Below are positions 2,882-45,948 of a DNA stretch of 64,000 nt, piece by piece. The DNA is taken from IMG/VR virus record IMGVR_UViG_3300035208_002115; one strand, written 5' to 3'. Source of the stretch: a virus (taxonomy: Duplodnaviria > Caudoviricetes). The first letter of the stretch is position 1. Each line of letters opens with the position of its first letter. A program made the translations under genes and the position numbers. The notes beneath the pieces were generated by a model that was given only the letters and a program-made list of their open reading frames with translations, had not been told where the DNA came from and searched no databases.

Positions 2882-4924
2882 ATGGCAAAAAATACAGGAA
2901 CATTAGTTGTTGATACTATTAAGACATATGACGATACAGATAAATATGCTGTTGTCAATTCGAGTGATATCAAAGGTGGACATCATGTTGTAGATTATGA
3001 TACTGATAGAAATAATTTAGTATCAACTTACCCATTACGTACCGAGACTGGTATGTTGGTTACTGTTAGGTCATCGTCTGATAATGGTAATCGAATGACA
3101 ACGTATCAACTTAGTGGTACGACATGGGTTAATTATGCCGATTACTTGACCGATGTAGCCAATATTTGGAAATCAGGGGCAACTGGTAATATATGGTATG
3201 CCCCACCATCGGGTAATGTGGGTATTGGAATAACTGGGGCTTATATAACTGGTAAATTGACTGTTTTTGGTCAAAGCCATTTTTATGGTATAAGTGATTA
3301 TAGATTTACCATCGACCCAACAAATGCTGCTATTTATAATTATGATACATCATTACTAATAATTGGGGCAATGCGAATTGGTAATAATACATCCAATACA
3401 GGTTTGATTATGAGACCAGATTTAGGTGATAAGATTGGTATAAATATAGATATTCCCACAACGACTCTTGATATTAATGGTAAAACTACTATTAGAGAAC
3501 AACTTATTATAGATTATAGTGCGACTGGGGGTGTAGATACTTGGAATAAATCAGGTTTACTAATTAAAAATAATAATGTTACCCCAAGTGAAGTTAGTGT
3601 TGCTTTTCAAAACATATCCACAGGTTCAAACTATTGGTTCACAGGATTAAATGAAAGTTCAATTTATCAAATAATATATGGTACGTCTTATGCTGGTACT
3701 TCATTTTTTGAAATTAATACATCTGGACTGGTTACTATTAATAATTCTTTAACTGTTAATAGTTCTATAAATTTAAATACTAATACCACTTTATCGGATG
3801 GTACAATTAATGTTGGTACAACATCAAGAGCAGGTAACTCAGTTATAAGAGCAAGAACTAATGATAGTTATATATCTGGGTTTGAAGCATATGGAAATGG
3901 AGCTGGTACAGGATATTTATATGTTGGTGAAAGTTCAACTTATGGTGGCGGTGTACTTTTTAATGGTGATGATGTACCGGGAGCGATTGACCCAGTAAAT
4001 TGTGTTCTATATTATAGAAGAAGTGCTGGTGTAGATTCAACTGTTTTTTATTATACTCAAAACGCCAACCATGTATATTTTAACGGTCATATTTACTTTA
4101 ATGCTTCAAATACATCAAATATTTATCATAATATCCCAACATACGGTATAAATATGAGAGGTGGTCTTGGTCTTAATGGGAGTTCTGGGCAACAAGGGTT
4201 TGGTTCTGGTTCTATAATTTTATACACTGGGCAAGGTGGTACTGGTGGTGAGGATTTGTCTACTCCAACATATGGACTTGATGGTGGTGATAGTGGTGCT
4301 GTTTCTTTGTACACTGGACAAGGTGGTACTGCTGGTGGAACTGCGATTGGATATAGTGGTGATGGTGGTGATAGTGGAGATTTAAATATTTATACTGGTA
4401 ACGGTGGAACTTCTGTTGGACATTATGGTGGTAGTAGTGGAAATATTAACATGTATACTGGTATTGCTGGTTCTGGATATTATACAGGGTCTTATGGTGA
4501 TATAATACTTCAATATTCATCAATTGCCAGAGGAAACGTTTTAATAGCTACTAATTCAAACCCAAGTAATAGACGTTTAAAAGTAAACGGTATTGGTGAA
4601 GCTACTGACTGGATTGCAATATCAGATATAAGAGAAAAAGAAAACATTATTTCTTTTGATAATGCACTTGATAAAGTGATGAAATTAAATCCAGTATATT
4701 TTAATTTTATAAATGGTGATGATAAATCCAAAAAAATTGGATTAATTGCACAAGAAGTTGAGGTTATTATACCTGAATTAATTCCACCAACAATAGGTGA
4801 TTCTACAAAAGGTGTTAGTTATAATAACCTAAGTGCGGTCTTAGTTAAAGCTATACAGGAACAAAATCTCATTATAGATAATTTAAAAGAAGAAATAGAA
4901 AAATTAAAAACAAAAATTAATTAA
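2882..4924 (+). CDS. Tail fibre with C-terminal intramolecular chaperone (peptidase S74)
   Basis: GNVGIG / KIGIN..P...LDING fibre repeats, Gly-rich segment, then SDIREKENI...LNPVYF...IGLIAQEVE...VSY..L..VLVKAIQE and a terminal coiled coil. Confidence 0.85.
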   Translation: MAKNTGTLVVDTIKTYDDTDKYAVVNSSDIKGGHHVVDYDTDRNNLVSTYPLRTETGMLVTVRSSSDNGNRMTTYQLSGTTWVNYADYLTDVANIWKSGATGNIWYAPPSGNVGIGITGAYITGKLTVFGQSHFYGISDYRFTIDPTNAAIYNYDTSLLIIGAMRIGNNTSNTGLIMRPDLGDKIGINIDIPTTTLDINGKTTIREQLIIDYSATGGVDTWNKSGLLIKNNNVTPSEVSVAFQNISTGSNYWFTGLNESSIYQIIYGTSYAGTSFFEINTSGLVTINNSLTVNSSINLNTNTTLSDGTINVGTTSRAGNSVIRARTNDSYISGFEAYGNGAGTGYLYVGESSTYGGGVLFNGDDVPGAIDPVNCVLYYRRSAGVDSTVFYYTQNANHVYFNGHIYFNASNTSNIYHNIPTYGINMRGGLGLNGSSGQQGFGSGSIILYTGQGGTGGEDLSTPTYGLDGGDSGAVSLYTGQGGTAGGTAIGYSGDGGDSGDLNIYTGNGGTSVGHYGGSSGNINMYTGIAGSGYYTGSYGDIILQYSSIARGNVLIATNSNPSNRRLKVNGIGEATDWIAISDIREKENIISFDNALDKVMKLNPVYFNFINGDDKSKKIGLIAQEVEVIIPELIPPTIGDSTKGVSYNNLSAVLVKAIQEQNLIIDNLKEEIEKLKTKIN

Positions 4925-4929
4925 TAATA

Positions 4930-6639
4930 ATGGCAGTTAATATAGCATTAGCTTTAGAACATGTAGATTTTAATAAGATTAACATAACTCTTGTTGATGG
5001 AATGTCCATTGACAAATTAAAAATAAGATATAATTGGATTTTCAATGCTTCCATTGAAGATGCTATAATTGGTGAAGATAACTACGGATTAGTATGGTAT
5101 TCTGGGAACTGGATATGCGGTGATTGGTATGACGGTACTTGGTATTCGGGAAATTTTGAAACGGGAACTTGGAGAAATGGAAGGTTTTATAGTTATAAAC
5201 TGAATAAATATGATGTTTTAAATGGTAATTTTAATATAATAGATAGGGGTAATCAATATTCTGTCATGGGAATTGGTGAAGGTTATGTTGAATGGGAATC
5301 TGGTGATTTTTATGGCGGTACATTTGGAACAAAGGTAATAGATTGGTCACTTTACACTCCATATGACCCAAATAATCCACAAGGAAATAATGATATTACT
5401 AATAATAGTGGTCAAACATGTGTGTGGAGAAATGGTAATTTTTATAATGGTGTGATTTTTAATTCTATATGGTGGGATGGTAACTGGTATAATGGTTATA
5501 TGGAAAACATTCAATGGATAAGTGGAAAATTTTATAATGGTGAATTTAATGGTTACATTTGGTATAATGGTACATTCTTAGGTGGGGATTTCATCAATGG
5601 TGAATGGATGAATGGTGTATTTACTACATTTAATGAAAATGTGAAATCGAGATTTGGTGTTGTTAAAAATCCTGAATCATTTATAGAAACTATATCAGTC
5701 AATGAGAATACTACTTTTGTTAAACCATTAACATATACAGTATTTGGTGGTGGTAATTTAACATGGTTAAATGGCACATACACTGGTTTAGTTCAAGTAA
5801 TTAATCAACAAATACATCAAAGTCGAAGTGTAAACTCATATATAACGAATTCGGCTGCGAATAGTGGATATACACAAACACTTTCTATAAATGGGTGGAG
5901 TTTTAATATACCCGAAACAGCAACAATAAATGGTATAGAAGTTTATATTTCTTTGTATGCATCTTATAAAGATTCAAGAACTTATAAAGTTTCAAAGGTA
6001 ACGTTATCAAAAACTATAACTAATAATCCATTACTTCAATCGAACAATTTAGCTGGTAATGAATTAGTGGATGTATATCCGAGTGGTTCACCTTGGCCTC
6101 CACTGTATTATAATTATTTTTATGGTAGTCCAACTAATACATGGGGTATGAGTTTTACACCTGAAGACGTAAATTCACCATTATTTTCAGTGAATTTTAA
6201 ACTTCTTAAAGATGTTACATTTTATAATATTTGTTATTTCGCTGGTTTGGTTGTTAATGTTTATTACACCACTGACGTGTCAACATATAATTATGAAAAG
6301 TGTACATGGAACAATGGTAATTTCAATAATGGTGAATTTCATTCTGGGTTAATTACAAATGCGGATGGAAGTATCACTGAATCTGGAAATCATAAAATTT
6401 CTATTTGGAATAATGGTAATTTTAATAATGGTAAATGGTATGGTGGGTCATTCAGAAATGGTACATTTAACAACGGTGAATTTTTAGCTGGATATTTTGG
6501 GACTGATTCATTTGCACCTACTTGGAATAATGGTCAATTTATTAACGGTTTCTGGCAGAATGGAGTATTTAATAATGGTGAATTCCATAATGGCATTTGT
6601 AAAAATATCGATATAAAAAATGGTAAACTGGGAGATTAA
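4930..6639 (+). CDS. Structural protein with (W/F)xNGx pentapeptide repeats flanking an inserted domain
   Basis: Tandem 5-aa repeats (e.g. WYNGT FLGGD FINGE WMNGV) in both the N- and C-terminal thirds. Confidence 0.6.
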   Translation: MAVNIALALEHVDFNKINITLVDGMSIDKLKIRYNWIFNASIEDAIIGEDNYGLVWYSGNWICGDWYDGTWYSGNFETGTWRNGRFYSYKLNKYDVLNGNFNIIDRGNQYSVMGIGEGYVEWESGDFYGGTFGTKVIDWSLYTPYDPNNPQGNNDITNNSGQTCVWRNGNFYNGVIFNSIWWDGNWYNGYMENIQWISGKFYNGEFNGYIWYNGTFLGGDFINGEWMNGVFTTFNENVKSRFGVVKNPESFIETISVNENTTFVKPLTYTVFGGGNLTWLNGTYTGLVQVINQQIHQSRSVNSYITNSAANSGYTQTLSINGWSFNIPETATINGIEVYISLYASYKDSRTYKVSKVTLSKTITNNPLLQSNNLAGNELVDVYPSGSPWPPLYYNYFYGSPTNTWGMSFTPEDVNSPLFSVNFKLLKDVTFYNICYFAGLVVNVYYTTDVSTYNYEKCTWNNGNFNNGEFHSGLITNADGSITESGNHKISIWNNGNFNNGKWYGGSFRNGTFNNGEFLAGYFGTDSFAPTWNNGQFINGFWQNGVFNNGEFHNGICKNIDIKNGKLGD

Positions 6640-37770: not shown

Positions 37771-39927
37771 GTGATGATTGAGTTTAACAAACTAATTCAA
37801 GCCCAATTCAACAAGATGTGTGAAACGGGTAAGTTATTTCGTAGTTCGTTGACTGGTCAAGAAGTGTGGGATTTGTATATTAAAAGTTTTCCAAAAGAAC
37901 ACAATCCCATATTCAGAAGTCCAGACAGTTCTTCTCATAACTGTAATCACTGTAATAACTTTATTCGTAGATATGGTAATATCGTTACCATTGATGAAAA
38001 TCTCAATGTTGTTACGATGTTTGATGTTGATGCAGATGAAGAATACAGTGCAGTAGCTAAAGTGGTAGATTCTAAACTAAAATCGGCTACGGTTTCGGGT
38101 GTTTTCTTTGAAACTTTCAGCGAGCTAAATTCTTTACCTTATGAGAAATGTTCTAAAACAAATGAAATTTTCAGATTGGGTATTGACAAAAACGTAAAGC
38201 AATACACAAAAGAGGAAGCTGAATTGTATAAAAATTCAGATAATTCTTTCATAGTTAAACCTGAAGAAATTAGAACATTTAATCATTTACATCTTAATCT
38301 ACCAAGGGTATTTGTAGATATGGGTGATGATTCAGTTGAAAAAATAATGGCTAATTATCGAGATGCCAAAAATGTTTTTCAAAAGGCTATGCAAGTGATA
38401 CCGCTTGATACACTCAATCTGGTGAAAGACCTTATTAACCAAGGTTCACTGCTGGATGGACAAACTCATTTGTATAAATTACACCAAATCATACCATTAA
38501 AAGAACAATATGATAAATTATCCGATGATAAAAAGGATAATTGGTGTTGGATTAACAGTTATAAACTTCCATTTGCTAAGTTCAAAAATGAATTAATTGG
38601 TACTTTATGCACCGAGTTGGCAGAGGGGGAAGAATTAAACAAAGCATGTCAGTCTTGGAATAAAAGAGTTGACCCAGTTAATTATATGAAAACTGTTGCT
38701 CCGATTACCAAGAAACAAATTGAAGAAGCTAAAAAATTCGTTGAAGAAAATGGTTATGAAGAATCTTTTAATAGAAGATTTGCCACAATTGATGATATTA
38801 AAGCTTCGGAAATTAAACACATCAATGTTGGAGACGGTAAATTAAAAACAGTTTCTATATTCGATAATGTTAAATCGACTTCTACTCGTCACAAAAGAAG
38901 TGAATTTGATAATGTGGAAGAAGTAACTATTGAAAAGTTTATGTCGGAGGTTCTTCCTTCGTGTACTTCAGTTGAAGCGTATTTGTCTAACAAATATGAA
39001 GGTAATCTTGTTTCTTTAACAACAGCTAACAATAAAGAAAGCAAACCTATATTCAAATGGAATAACAATTACAGTTGGACATTCAATGGTAACTTGGCTG
39101 GTAAATCGATGATTAAAGATGCTGTTGAAGCTAAAGGTGGTAAGGTTGATGGTGTATTGCGTTTCTCTATTATGTGGGCAGAAAATGACCCAACAGATAA
39201 TTCCGATTTAGATGCTCATGCACAAGAACCAAATGGTACTCATATTTATTATTCGTCTGATTACAGAAAAGACAGAGGAAATCATAGAACTTCTATGTCT
39301 GGACAGTTGGATATTGATATAACTCAACCTAATAATTTTAGTAATAAAAATATTGTTGAGAATATCGCTTGGACTGATATCAAAAGAATGAAAGATGGTG
39401 TTTACAAATTGTGGATTAACCAATATGCCAGTAGGGGTTCTAAAGGATTCAAAGCTGAAATTGAATTCGGGGGCGAAATTTATTCTTATGAATATAATAA
39501 ACCCGTATCAGGCAATGTACAAGTAGCTGAAGTTACTTTTAATAATGGGGAATTTACCATTAAGCATTTACTACCTGAAATTGCATCATCTAAAGAACTT
39601 TATGGTTTACAAACAAATGAATTTCATAAAGTGAATTTAGTGTGTCTAAGTCCTAATCATTGGGGAGATAATAATGTAGGAAATAAACATTATTTATTCA
39701 TGCTTGATGATTGTAAATGTCCAGTAAATATTCGTAGTTTTCATAATGAAAACTTGATACCAGAATTAGCACAACATCGCAAAGTTCTCGAAGTACTGGG
39801 TAACACTACTATGATTGAACCTGCTAATAAACAATTATCTGGTTTTGGGTTCAATGCTACTGTTCGAGATGAACTTATTGTTAAATTACAAGGGTCATTC
39901 AAACGAGTAATTAAAATAAAATTTTAA
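37771..39927 (+). CDS. Large conserved phage protein with YfaP/TerD-like C-terminal domain
   Basis: HNCNHC..FI..YG; SDLDAH..EP...HIYY...LDID...VENI.W. Confidence 0.55.
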   Translation: MMIEFNKLIQAQFNKMCETGKLFRSSLTGQEVWDLYIKSFPKEHNPIFRSPDSSSHNCNHCNNFIRRYGNIVTIDENLNVVTMFDVDADEEYSAVAKVVDSKLKSATVSGVFFETFSELNSLPYEKCSKTNEIFRLGIDKNVKQYTKEEAELYKNSDNSFIVKPEEIRTFNHLHLNLPRVFVDMGDDSVEKIMANYRDAKNVFQKAMQVIPLDTLNLVKDLINQGSLLDGQTHLYKLHQIIPLKEQYDKLSDDKKDNWCWINSYKLPFAKFKNELIGTLCTELAEGEELNKACQSWNKRVDPVNYMKTVAPITKKQIEEAKKFVEENGYEESFNRRFATIDDIKASEIKHINVGDGKLKTVSIFDNVKSTSTRHKRSEFDNVEEVTIEKFMSEVLPSCTSVEAYLSNKYEGNLVSLTTANNKESKPIFKWNNNYSWTFNGNLAGKSMIKDAVEAKGGKVDGVLRFSIMWAENDPTDNSDLDAHAQEPNGTHIYYSSDYRKDRGNHRTSMSGQLDIDITQPNNFSNKNIVENIAWTDIKRMKDGVYKLWINQYASRGSKGFKAEIEFGGEIYSYEYNKPVSGNVQVAEVTFNNGEFTIKHLLPEIASSKELYGLQTNEFHKVNLVCLSPNHWGDNNVGNKHYLFMLDDCKCPVNIRSFHNENLIPELAQHRKVLEVLGNTTMIEPANKQLSGFGFNATVRDELIVKLQGSFKRVIKIKF

Positions 39928-41350: not shown

Positions 41351-41648
41351 TCTACAATAATCCTCATTTTTATATGTTCACTCACCTAAGACTGTCAACG
41401 GCAGCATGAATATTCGATATGCCTACCTTCAATTTAGCGTGTTCACTCACCCTTTGCTATCAAAATGCAATGTATACCCATGATGTGTCTACCTTCAATT
41501 TAGCGTGTTCACTCACCAGTCTAAAGTTTTATACGAATAAAGGTCTCGATGTGTCTACCTTCAATTTAGCGTGTTCACTCACCAAAAGGATAAGTCGATC
41601 AGCATCCCTACCGATGTGTCTACCTTCAATTTAGCGTGTTCACTCACC
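41351..41648 (-). CRISPR. CRISPR-like mini-array: four 36-bp repeats plus one degenerate terminal repeat, four spacers of 29-30 bp; no cas genes in the window
   Basis: GATGTGTCTACCTTCAATTTAGCGTGTTCACTCACC at 41482, 41548 and 41613 (identical) and at 41416 (2 mismatches); degenerate copy at 41351-41386. Unique spacers 41387-41415, 41452-41481, 41518-41547, 41584-41612. Confidence 0.85.
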
Positions 41649-41914
41649 ATACTACTAACTAATTTATTAATATTCAAATCATTAAGATGATATTTTTCTT
41701 CTAAAATTTGATGTATTTTAGAGAAAGAATAATATAAAATGTATTTTTTTAAATCATAATTAAAATAAACAATATTATTTTTCTTACCAATTAAATAATC
41801 AGAATCATTTTCAGAAACATACCATTCTGTATCCTTAATGATATTCCAAAGGAAGTATTTTGGACTTCTGGCTTCCTGAATCTTTTGTATTATATCTAAA
41901 GTATCTTCTTCCAT
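41579..41914 (-). CDS. 111-aa protein whose C-terminus is encoded by the first repeat and spacer of the array
   Basis: Codons 89-101 (M-VSEHAKLKVDT-S) span the repeat at 41648-41613; the spacer gives VGMLIDLSF-W; the stop TGA lies in the next repeat. Confidence 0.75.
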   Translation of the reverse strand: MEEDTLDIIQKIQEARSPKYFLWNIIKDTEWYVSENDSDYLIGKKNNIVYFNYDLKKYILYYSFSKIHQILEEKYHLNDLNINKLVSSMVSEHAKLKVDTSVGMLIDLSFW

Positions 41915-41917
41915 TCT

Positions 41918-42493
41918 TTATGAGAGATATGCCATACATTTGTTTTTAGCCTCGGTTAGCTCAATGAATTTATCTCTGTTACCACCTTTGTCTGGGTGGT
42001 GAACCATTGATAATTTGCGGTATGCCCCTTTAACATCTTCTAATGTAGCATCAGTTTCTAACCCAAGAACTTGAAAACTGGATGATGGTTTTTGTTTTGA
42101 AAACAATGAATGTAAAAAGAATCCAAATATCCAAGAATCTTCTTCTTTTTCCATGCGTTCCCAATCTTCTTTTCTTTTTTTCCAATCTTCTTTTTCCTGT
42201 CGTTGTCGCTCCATTACTTCAGGAAACAATTCTTCCCGTAATTTAGCTATCACAGAAGCGAAAAAATATTTCCAGAGTTTTTCAGGTAATTGACCAGCCG
42301 TTTTTTTATCTATGCCATCCCATTTCATTCGAATAGCATTGACAGCGTTATTATAACCTTTAATATTACCTCGTGCATTACCCACTTCTAAAAGTGTAAT
42401 AAAATCCATTGTCAAGTCTGAAATGAATTCATTATGACTGAAGTTTACACCTTTATCAAGGTTATATTTTTTAATGTAATCGAGTGGTTTCAT
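41918..42493 (-). CDS. Protein with C-terminal DnaJ (J) domain
   Basis: FQVLGL...VKGAYRKLSMVHHPDKGG...F..L.EA. Confidence 0.85.
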   Translation of the reverse strand: MKPLDYIKKYNLDKGVNFSHNEFISDLTMDFITLLEVGNARGNIKGYNNAVNAIRMKWDGIDKKTAGQLPEKLWKYFFASVIAKLREELFPEVMERQRQEKEDWKKRKEDWERMEKEEDSWIFGFFLHSLFSKQKPSSSFQVLGLETDATLEDVKGAYRKLSMVHHPDKGGNRDKFIELTEAKNKCMAYLS

Positions 42494-44019: not shown

Positions 44020-44568
44020 ATGATTCTACCAATATACACCTATGGCGAACCAATACTTATACAACAACCAAGAACAATCGATTTAATAAATGAAAAAAAT
44101 TATATACAAGACTTAATAAGAAATATGTTTGAAACCCTTAATGCAGCCAAGGGTGTAGGACTGGCTGCTCATCAGGTTGGTGTTCCTATAAAATTATTTA
44201 TTGTTGATACTACTGATGGACTTGGTGAAGATATGTTTTTTGGGTTCAAAGAAGTATTTATAAATCCAATTATAATAGAAAGAAGTGATAGTAAAACCAC
44301 TGCAACTGAAGGTTGTTTAAGTTTCCCAAATTTGATGGATGATGTGTTTCGACCTGATAAAATATGTATTGATTATTTAAATGCTAACTTTGAACATAAA
44401 ATTGTCGATTATGAGGGAATTATAGCCAGAATTATACAACATGAATATGACCATATATTTGGAACATTGTTTATAAAACGTTTTGATGTCAAATCTTTAA
44501 AGAAAATAAATAAAACTTTAACTGACATTGAGAATAAAAGAATAAAGACAAATTATAAAATTATTTAA
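44020..44568 (+). CDS. def: Peptide deformylase
   Basis: GVGLAAHQVG, EGCLSFP, QHEYDH. Confidence 0.95.
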   Translation: MILPIYTYGEPILIQQPRTIDLINEKNYIQDLIRNMFETLNAAKGVGLAAHQVGVPIKLFIVDTTDGLGEDMFFGFKEVFINPIIIERSDSKTTATEGCLSFPNLMDDVFRPDKICIDYLNANFEHKIVDYEGIIARIIQHEYDHIFGTLFIKRFDVKSLKKINKTLTDIENKRIKTNYKII

Positions 44569-45468: not shown

Positions 45469-45948
45469 ATGAAAACAACAGAAACACACATATTCTTTTT
45501 AAAAGAATGGCTCAGTAATTTTAAATATTGTACCATCATGTCTGGTGGAAATAAATTTAGTAATACTGAACAACTATTCATGTATCATAAAGCTATATTT
45601 TTTGAAGATGAAGATATAGCCGAAAAGATATTAGTAACTCCTGTTCCATATGAAGCTAAAGCATTAGGAAGATTAGTAAAAGGTTATAATGATGAAGATT
45701 GGAATAAAGTTCGTTATGATGTCATGTATCAGTCCAATCTTCTTAAATATATACAAAACGAGGATTTAAAAGAAAAATTATTAGCTACTGGTAATAAGAT
45801 TTTGGTGGAAGTTAATCCACGAGATGCTATATGGGGTATATCTATGGATGAAAACGACCCAGATATATTGGATGAATCAAAATGGAAAGGTCAGAATCTA
45901 CTTGGTAAAGTTTTGATGGATGTCAGAGAAACATTAAAGAAAAAATAA
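45469..45948 (+). CDS. NADAR (YbiA-like) family protein
   Basis: LSNF...EQ.FM..KA..F.D...K.LGR...W...LL.TG...LVE..P.D.IWG...GQNLLG..LM.VRE. Confidence 0.9.
   Translation: MKTTETHIFFLKEWLSNFKYCTIMSGGNKFSNTEQLFMYHKAIFFEDEDIAEKILVTPVPYEAKALGRLVKGYNDEDWNKVRYDVMYQSNLLKYIQNEDLKEKLLATGNKILVEVNPRDAIWGISMDENDPDILDESKWKGQNLLGKVLMDVRETLKKK

Follow-up and report, generated by a model that had tools for sequence, protein, structure and literature searches.

A CRISPR-type array with a coding leader and first repeat at the end of a small megaphage gene, possibly a decoy for host adaptation

Megaphages carry a small protein gene whose 3′ end doubles as the leader and first repeat of a CRISPR array. An array with a coding leader that is loaded by the host is the core common to the readings weighed below, and we regard it as very probable. 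As to the purpose for which this arrangement was selected, we tentatively favor that of a decoy for host CRISPR adaptation with a non-cutting array, to which we assign a probability of roughly 0.4.

The locus lies in a 64,000-nt stretch (the window) of a 675,678-bp single virus record, G000 [Table 1]. Repeat 1 spans the third base of Met89 to the second base of codon 101, the TGA stop codon of the 111-residue gene corresponds to bases 3–5 of repeat 2, and the repeats at 41648, 41583, 41517, 41451 and 41386 harbor 0, 0, 0, 2 and 15 mismatches, respectively. Coordinates and mismatch counts thus confirmed in its details the layout proposed in an earlier, sequence-only reading of the locus, in which the open reading frame (ORF) was seen to run into a repeat-spacer array, with its stop in the second repeat and repeats decaying away from the gene. 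The array displays the regular direct repeats and unique spacers of near-constant length by which CRISPR arrays are recognized, and its 36-nt repeat has no further occurrence elsewhere in the 675,678 bp of G000. Neighboring genes in the window encode a DnaJ-domain protein (41918–42493), a peptide deformylase (44020–44568) and a NADAR-family protein (45469–45948). Coding Gly-rich and Asn-Gly repeats are found at 4183–4470 and 5425–6607 of the window, in large ORFs that probably encode structural proteins.

Table 1 Features of the gene-fused array (positions in the window).
Feature	Position	Strand	Remarks
111-aa protein gene	41579..41914	-	~101-aa folded domain (two helices, four-stranded sheet, two helices) + spacer-encoded tail
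Leader-equivalent, overprinted on codons ~63–89	41649..41728	-	in-register match to non-coding leaders of the phages' IscB-/TnpB-linked arrays
Repeat 1, coding (codons 89–101: last-helix end + terminal strand)	41613..41648	-	
Spacer 1, 29 nt, newest; codes for C-terminal tail; target not found	41584..41612	-	
Repeat 2, identical; contains stop codon of gene	41548..41583	-	
Spacer 2, 30 nt; target not found	41518..41547	-	
Repeat 3, identical	41482..41517	-	
Spacer 3, 30 nt; target not found	41452..41481	-	
Repeat 4, 2 mismatches	41416..41451	-	
Spacer 4, 29 nt, oldest; target not found	41387..41415	-	
Terminal half-repeat; mismatches: 4 in first 18 nt, 11 in last 18	41351..41386	-	

The relatives of G000 used for comparison were G002 (640 kb, complete), G001 (422 kb), G003 (98 kb) and G004 (20 kb), of which G001, G002 and G003 share ~80–82% identity with G000 across roughly half their length. 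G001 and G003 originate from the same sample and cover complementary parts of G000; they are thus probably one genome. By its size and its relatives, G000 is consistent with the megaphages from landfill described by George et al. 2025 (PMC12607003), who place the largest of them among Mahaphages with Bacteroidetes as predicted hosts and list the 421,673-bp phage G001 with six arrays. G000–G004 contain 20 arrays of this repeat family with at least two repeats. In all of them the array begins at one and the same codon position of its gene, although one of these genes is frameshifted, and three further arrays from another sample conform to this rule. Accidental loss of a stop codon was therefore rejected as the origin of the fusion, 23 arrays beginning at the same codon and close homologues of the protein carrying arrays rather than lacking them. 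Fused arrays are dispersed over the genomes of G002 (11 arrays) and G001 (six arrays), and G000 has one cassette only.

Sixteen homologues at 47–72% identity have the repeat-encoded motif in common and diverge in sequence after it. A profile search yielded 306 relatives of the 111-residue protein, and the fusion is kept down to 25–35% protein identity. Repetition of the C-terminal codons downstream of the gene, which the sequence-only reading had proposed to look for in homologues, was found in the form of a C-terminal motif recurring at a lag of 21–22 residues in 37 of the 164 family proteins examined; the five such relatives inspected at the DNA level consist of 36+30-nt units. The repeat of each array tracks its own gene. 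The window site is flanked by the DnaJ-domain gene and a DUF6794 gene. G000, G001 and G002 all carry a cassette there, and the spacers of these three phages differ completely at this orthologous position, contrary to the invariance that would have spoken against the sequence-only reading. Elsewhere, the relatives have copies of the cassette, cleanly inserted, at positions that are empty in G000, and a 5′ half-repeat is kept after the last spacer in 12 of 20 family arrays. Variant forms of the locus were also observed. Divergent array-less paralogues occur in G000:C1 at 237106 (minus strand) and 511768 (plus strand), the first of these sites being occupied by an array-bearing copy in a related phage (L201). 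In P0019 (L050:4001-6283), five domains follow one another in tandem and each of them has a mini-array whose units are in frame within a long ORF, and L115:1501-2260 has one domain followed by at least seven 22-residue units, likewise in frame within a long ORF. A solitary full repeat without the gene is found at G004:C1:1653-1688, and an internally deleted cassette at G001:C1:190603-190755, immediately upstream of a TnpB-like gene.

A profile built from the 80 coding bases preceding repeat 1 was compared, at 21 shifts, with the non-coding leaders of the IscB-linked and TnpB-linked arrays of these phages and had its highest score at shift 0 (P at most 1.3e-4). The leader of the Cas9 array reached P 0.003 at shift 0, with its optimum at −10, and no score was obtained on the Cas12a-type array or on the long-spacer array; the two IscB leaders being related, the comparison amounts to about three independent leaders. 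Thus, the sequence-only reading was right in assigning the roles of leader and first repeat to the gene and wrong in describing the array as devoid of a leader, the latter being present inside the coding sequence, at codons ~63–89. Its proposal that new units are added at the gene end held as well. In 17 of 19 arrays, repeats become more degenerate with distance from the gene and, in the G003 array, the derived variant of the gene is present in repeats 1–4 and the ancestral form in repeat 5, indicating that new repeats are copied from the gene end. Independent support for this polarity came from an excess of self-matching spacers at the gene-proximal (newest) position, which accounts for five of the eight self-matches described below (5/19 vs 3/46, P 0.04).

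The repeat is further marked by fixed rare codons, GTG being used in 16 of 18 cases (11% genome-wide), AGG at 12 of 12 (11%) and GAC at 15 of 16 (16%), and by a GC3 of 43% vs 17% upstream. This synonymous bias points to selection on the repeat at the DNA level, although part of it may be due to the close relatedness of the sequences and to their conversion with the array. Rfam returned no match at the locus and a promoter scan was at chance level. Fused repeats have a predicted hairpin of 0 to −5.7 kcal/mol, compared to −11 to −14 kcal/mol for Cas13b-linked repeats, and the folding z scores of the window repeat were 0.1 and −1.2.

Twelve of 65 unique family spacers matched phage DNA with at most two mismatches, whereas 195 shuffled spacers never did better than five mismatches. 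Six spacers matched their own record with at most one mismatch and two more did so across G001 and G003, yielding six to eight self-matches out of 65, two of which depend on the probable identity of these two records as one genome; four of the 12 traced spacers matched another record only. That spacers are mostly self applies to the traced ones only, as 53 of the 65, including all four window spacers, had no source. Other arrays of these phages, mostly nuclease-linked, displayed 0 of 34 self-matches, a borderline difference (Fisher P 0.048–0.09). Relative to the direction of the gene, eight targets are sense and four antisense. Perfect self-matches occur on both strands, and some of these lie within core genes, such as a prohead-protease-like ORF and ORFs of DNA metabolism or of structural size. 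A 3′ NAAA motif, on the leader-distal side, accompanies six of the 12 protospacers (P about 0.001 by permutation vs strand-matched coding DNA, in a small sample); no 5′ motif was detected in the 12. The four window spacers had no target in G000, 41 related phage records and 4.5 Mb of loci (best, 7–9 mismatches), nor in INPHARED or 401 genomes of one Bacteroidales-centred order sample, and exact 20-mers of spacers 1 and 4 found none in IMG/VR; George et al. (PMC12607003) likewise reported no viral targets of megaphage arrays. The window itself harbors, at 39150–39180, an exact 31-nt protospacer of a G001 fused-array spacer that also matches G001; it lies within ORF 37771–39927, a conserved 718-residue gene (phrog_1735). 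Spacer 2 of L006/L016 (G004:C1:721-750) resembles part of the repeat of the G000 IscB array, as though another CRISPR locus or a tracrRNA had been its source.

The 111-residue gene is real and under purifying selection, with a dN/dS of 0.12 over codons 2–27 and 0.40 over codons 2–89, rough values inflated by codon bias. AlphaFold2 (pLDDT 95) predicts the fold given in Table 1, of which the repeat-encoded part comprises the terminal strand and the end of the last helix. Searches of Pfam, PHROGs, NCBIfam, PADLOC and PDB sequences returned no match for the protein, Foldseek found none for the modelled fold in the PDB, and fold searches of BFVD and Atlas matched uncharacterised phage proteins only; the absence of a solved relative does not prove a new fold. 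The suggestion that the protein binds or processes its own repeat RNA found no support. Nothing matched among RAMP, Nop, HEPN, RuvC and other nucleic-acid-binding families, comparison with guide-binding folds gave VIA as its best result (Z 4.3, rmsd 4.4, 70 aligned), no residue is invariant among 103 family sequences, and family proteins have a net charge of −5 to +5, with no basic character.

No Cas1 or Cas2 was found in G000–G004, from which we infer that loading is probably performed in trans by the host; the earlier description of the locus as a self-contained module is at odds with this absence. A precedent for such loading between class 2 types exists among Bacteroidota: in Flavobacterium, VI-B arrays have been shown to be loaded in trans by the Cas1-Cas2 of a II-C system (Hoikkala 2021, PMC8092290). 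Genes for Cas9, Cas1 and Cas2 are absent from the vicinity of the fused array, no Cas13b ORF lies beside it, no large ORF with two HEPN-like motifs is present in G000, and the RuvC effector nearest to the window array is 27 kb away with its own array. An ungapped scan for tracrRNA anti-repeats found none in the phages; the same scan also missed the known tracrRNA of the G002 Cas9. Among 185,579 genomes, no host array with this repeat pattern was found, only arrays with similar ends, and the true host may be absent from the collection. Bacterial arrays with the same repeat ends lie beside Cas13b (two), beside a TnpB-like gene (one) or with no effector in view (one).

In its workings, the fused array resembles an orphan class 2 array loaded in trans; it falls outside types II-C, VI-B and V-U on effector, hairpin or strand grounds. 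As in the orphan arrays of huge phages described in PMC7162821 and PMC12607003, a short, compact array is carried by a megaphage without Cas1 or Cas2 and host machinery is presumed; unlike in those, the leader and first repeat are protein-coding, the cassette is multi-copy and the traced spacers are mostly self. Gene fusion is not mentioned in the available text of either paper, and no published description of a coding leader-repeat emerged from a literature search that had most subscription journals outside its reach. With type VI-B arrays (PMC8092290), the fused arrays share the 36+30 geometry and the lack of an integrase of their own, and 22–26 of 36 repeat positions are identical to those of arrays beside Cas13b in Hoylesella and in a Bacteroidales genome. 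They differ by the lack of Cas13b, a far weaker hairpin, the absence of antisense bias and a conserved repeat arm that points away from the leader side, apparently reversed. The CRISPR-linked TnpB/Cas12f-like (V-U) and IscB loci of the phages have the in-register leader, the junction and the unit length in common with the fused arrays, as well as the polarity in the case of TnpB, but their arrays lack self-matches, and the gene adjacent to the fused array encodes a 101-residue domain without a nuclease fold. The leader-distal position of the weak 3′ NAAA motif departs from the II-C rule. Phage-borne repeat elements also include the viral mini-arrays and solitary repeat units for which a role in subverting host CRISPR has been proposed (Shmakov 2023, PMC10120712); those, however, copy the host repeat with at most one spacer, whereas the fused arrays are coding and still acquiring.

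According to the decoy explanation, the 3′ third of the small gene carries, superimposed on its codons, the leader and first repeat of a class 2-type CRISPR array. In the infected cell, the Cas1-Cas2 integrase of the host, acting in trans, would insert ~30-nt pieces at repeat 1, an event that would duplicate the repeat and, as a side effect, rewrite the last ~10 residues of the protein. The pieces would stem from phage DNA present in the cell, mostly the phage's own genome or that of close kin, and from both strands, and the resulting guides would not be wired to a nuclease cutting those targets. Through its multi-copy leader-repeat sites, the phage genome would in this manner attract both the adaptation complexes of the host and the prespacers derived from phage DNA, and dud repeat RNA may possibly occupy host effectors. 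Observed elements of this scheme are the conserved fusion, the polar growth, the leader match, the constraint on the DNA and the phage-derived, partly self-matching spacers in phages in which no Cas1 or Cas2 was found; the host integrase, the absence of cutting and the role as decoy are inferences. Against this explanation, a lytic phage individually gains little from blocking adaptation, G000 makes do with its single cassette, and the continued fusion of the leader to a protein under purifying selection is left unexplained; nor does a decoy account for the protein's own function. The borderline contrast with nuclease-linked arrays, the large share of spacers that could not be traced and the leader-distal side of the NAAA motif also weigh against it.

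Alternatively, the helix-encoding gene end may merely happen to resemble a leader and repeat, at which host Cas1-Cas2 inserts mistakenly, any tail being tolerated and the array remaining idle: a neutral hot-spot, or natural 'neo-array'. Off-array Cas1-Cas2 integration giving rise to neo-CRISPR arrays has been reported (Nivala 2018, as cited in PMC11788318), and these too originate where no array existed before. The occurrence of self-matches on either strand, the shortness of the arrays, an unselected tail, units lying mid-ORF and in frame in multi-domain relatives, and a repeat that drifts along with the protein across the family would all suit such a hot-spot. Unlike in reported neo-arrays, however, the fused site is conserved across a whole protein family, in spite of the low identity of its distant members, and carries the DNA-level constraint visible in its fixed rare codons and GC3. 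Moreover, an array-less copy nested among array-bearing copies in a mostly unresolved tree sits on a longer branch (0.92 vs a median of 0.41), as if loss of the array had released constraint. We hold a neutral hot-spot to be rather unlikely.

A single mRNA might instead give rise to the protein as well as to a pre-guide RNA. By itself or in oligomeric form, the protein would then bind repeat-spacer RNA and act as a non-cutting RNA-guided binder or regulator to which self-targets would be harmless or even useful. The joint movement of gene and array as a clean cassette into empty sites, the tracking of each gene by its repeat, the confidently predicted fold lacking a solved relative together with the low dN/dS of codons 2–27, the half-repeat kept after the last spacer and the existence of tandem-domain relatives are compatible with this possibility. 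Running counter to it are the lack of any nucleic-acid-binding family match, invariant residue or marked charge, the existence of array-less paralogues, and the full turnover of spacers at the orthologous site with matches to unrelated genes, unlike what is seen for regulatory guides. Such a module we consider unlikely, and the same grade is given to its wider form, in which the ~100-residue domain and its fused array would make up a new minimal RNA-guided system, loaded by host Cas1-Cas2 and binding DNA or RNA through spacer-repeat RNAs without cutting.

Less probable still is a guide library serving in trans a cutting class 2 effector (the TnpB/Cas12f-like protein or IscB of the phages, or a host Cas9 or Cas13b) against competing megaphages, a use proposed for huge-phage orphan and compact arrays by Al-Shayeb 2020 (PMC7162821). 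Leader, geometry and polarity are those of the G000 TnpB-linked array 27 kb away, with 12 of 18 identities at the 3′ end of the repeat; a bacterial TnpB-linked array shows 24/36 identity and the same polarity; and some spacers match relatives only. The perfect self-matches on both strands, some in core genes, nevertheless count against cutting by a TnpB-like effector in trans, as does the lack of the 5′ motif needed by type V. In G002, Cas9 comes with a tracrRNA and a distinct repeat of its own, the loss of the hairpin and the presence of self-guides on both strands argue against the use of Cas13b, and the repeat pattern was encountered in none of the host arrays searched. Finally, that the arrays serve to rewrite or multiply a C-terminal 22-residue unit is highly improbable: 66 nt do equal 22 codons and the runs in P0019 and L115 are fully in frame, but spacers of the close family measure 28–32 nt and stops are as frequent in first (5/20) as in later spacers (13/48), the tail being unselected in the close family and tail selection accordingly rejected for this clade.

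The overlap of a CRISPR leader and repeat with the codons of a folded protein, maintained across a large family of phage proteins, implies that arrays can arise and persist within coding sequence, and the coding leader-repeat offers a natural, testable route to the origin of new arrays. A decoy, if confirmed, would represent an anti-adaptation strategy at the DNA level; should the protein use the guides, it might be a very small RNA-guided effector. Megaphage orphan arrays cannot be presumed to be weapons against competitors, and their self-matching spacers can mislead the assignment of hosts and targets.

Other arrays, most of them nuclease-linked, were also observed. In G000, a 529-residue IscB (NCBIfam guided_IscB, over cut-off) is followed directly by an 8-repeat array (G000:C1:128709-130880; L031:8710-10885), a CRISPR-linked IscB in a phage, and a related 2-repeat array is located in G002 at 395616. 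G000:C1:513169-514958 (L032:8169-10037) holds a TnpB/Cas12f-like gene (420–446 residues, RuvC-like acidic motifs) with a leader and a 5-repeat array, and a related gene and array lie near 192 kb in G001. G002 encodes a 1157-residue Cas9 that is associated with an array of 11 repeats and with a tracrRNA-like anti-repeat, without Cas1 or Cas2 (G002:C1:284821-288937; L139), along with a Cas12a-type array (177773) and one with ~43-nt spacers (184951). In L140 (G005:C1:386-6706), a 1239-residue Cas9-like ORF accompanies a long array with units of unequal length, the differences amounting to a few bases at the end of the repeat, and the Cas13b array of Hoylesella (L056:2749-3114) switches half-way between two repeat variants.
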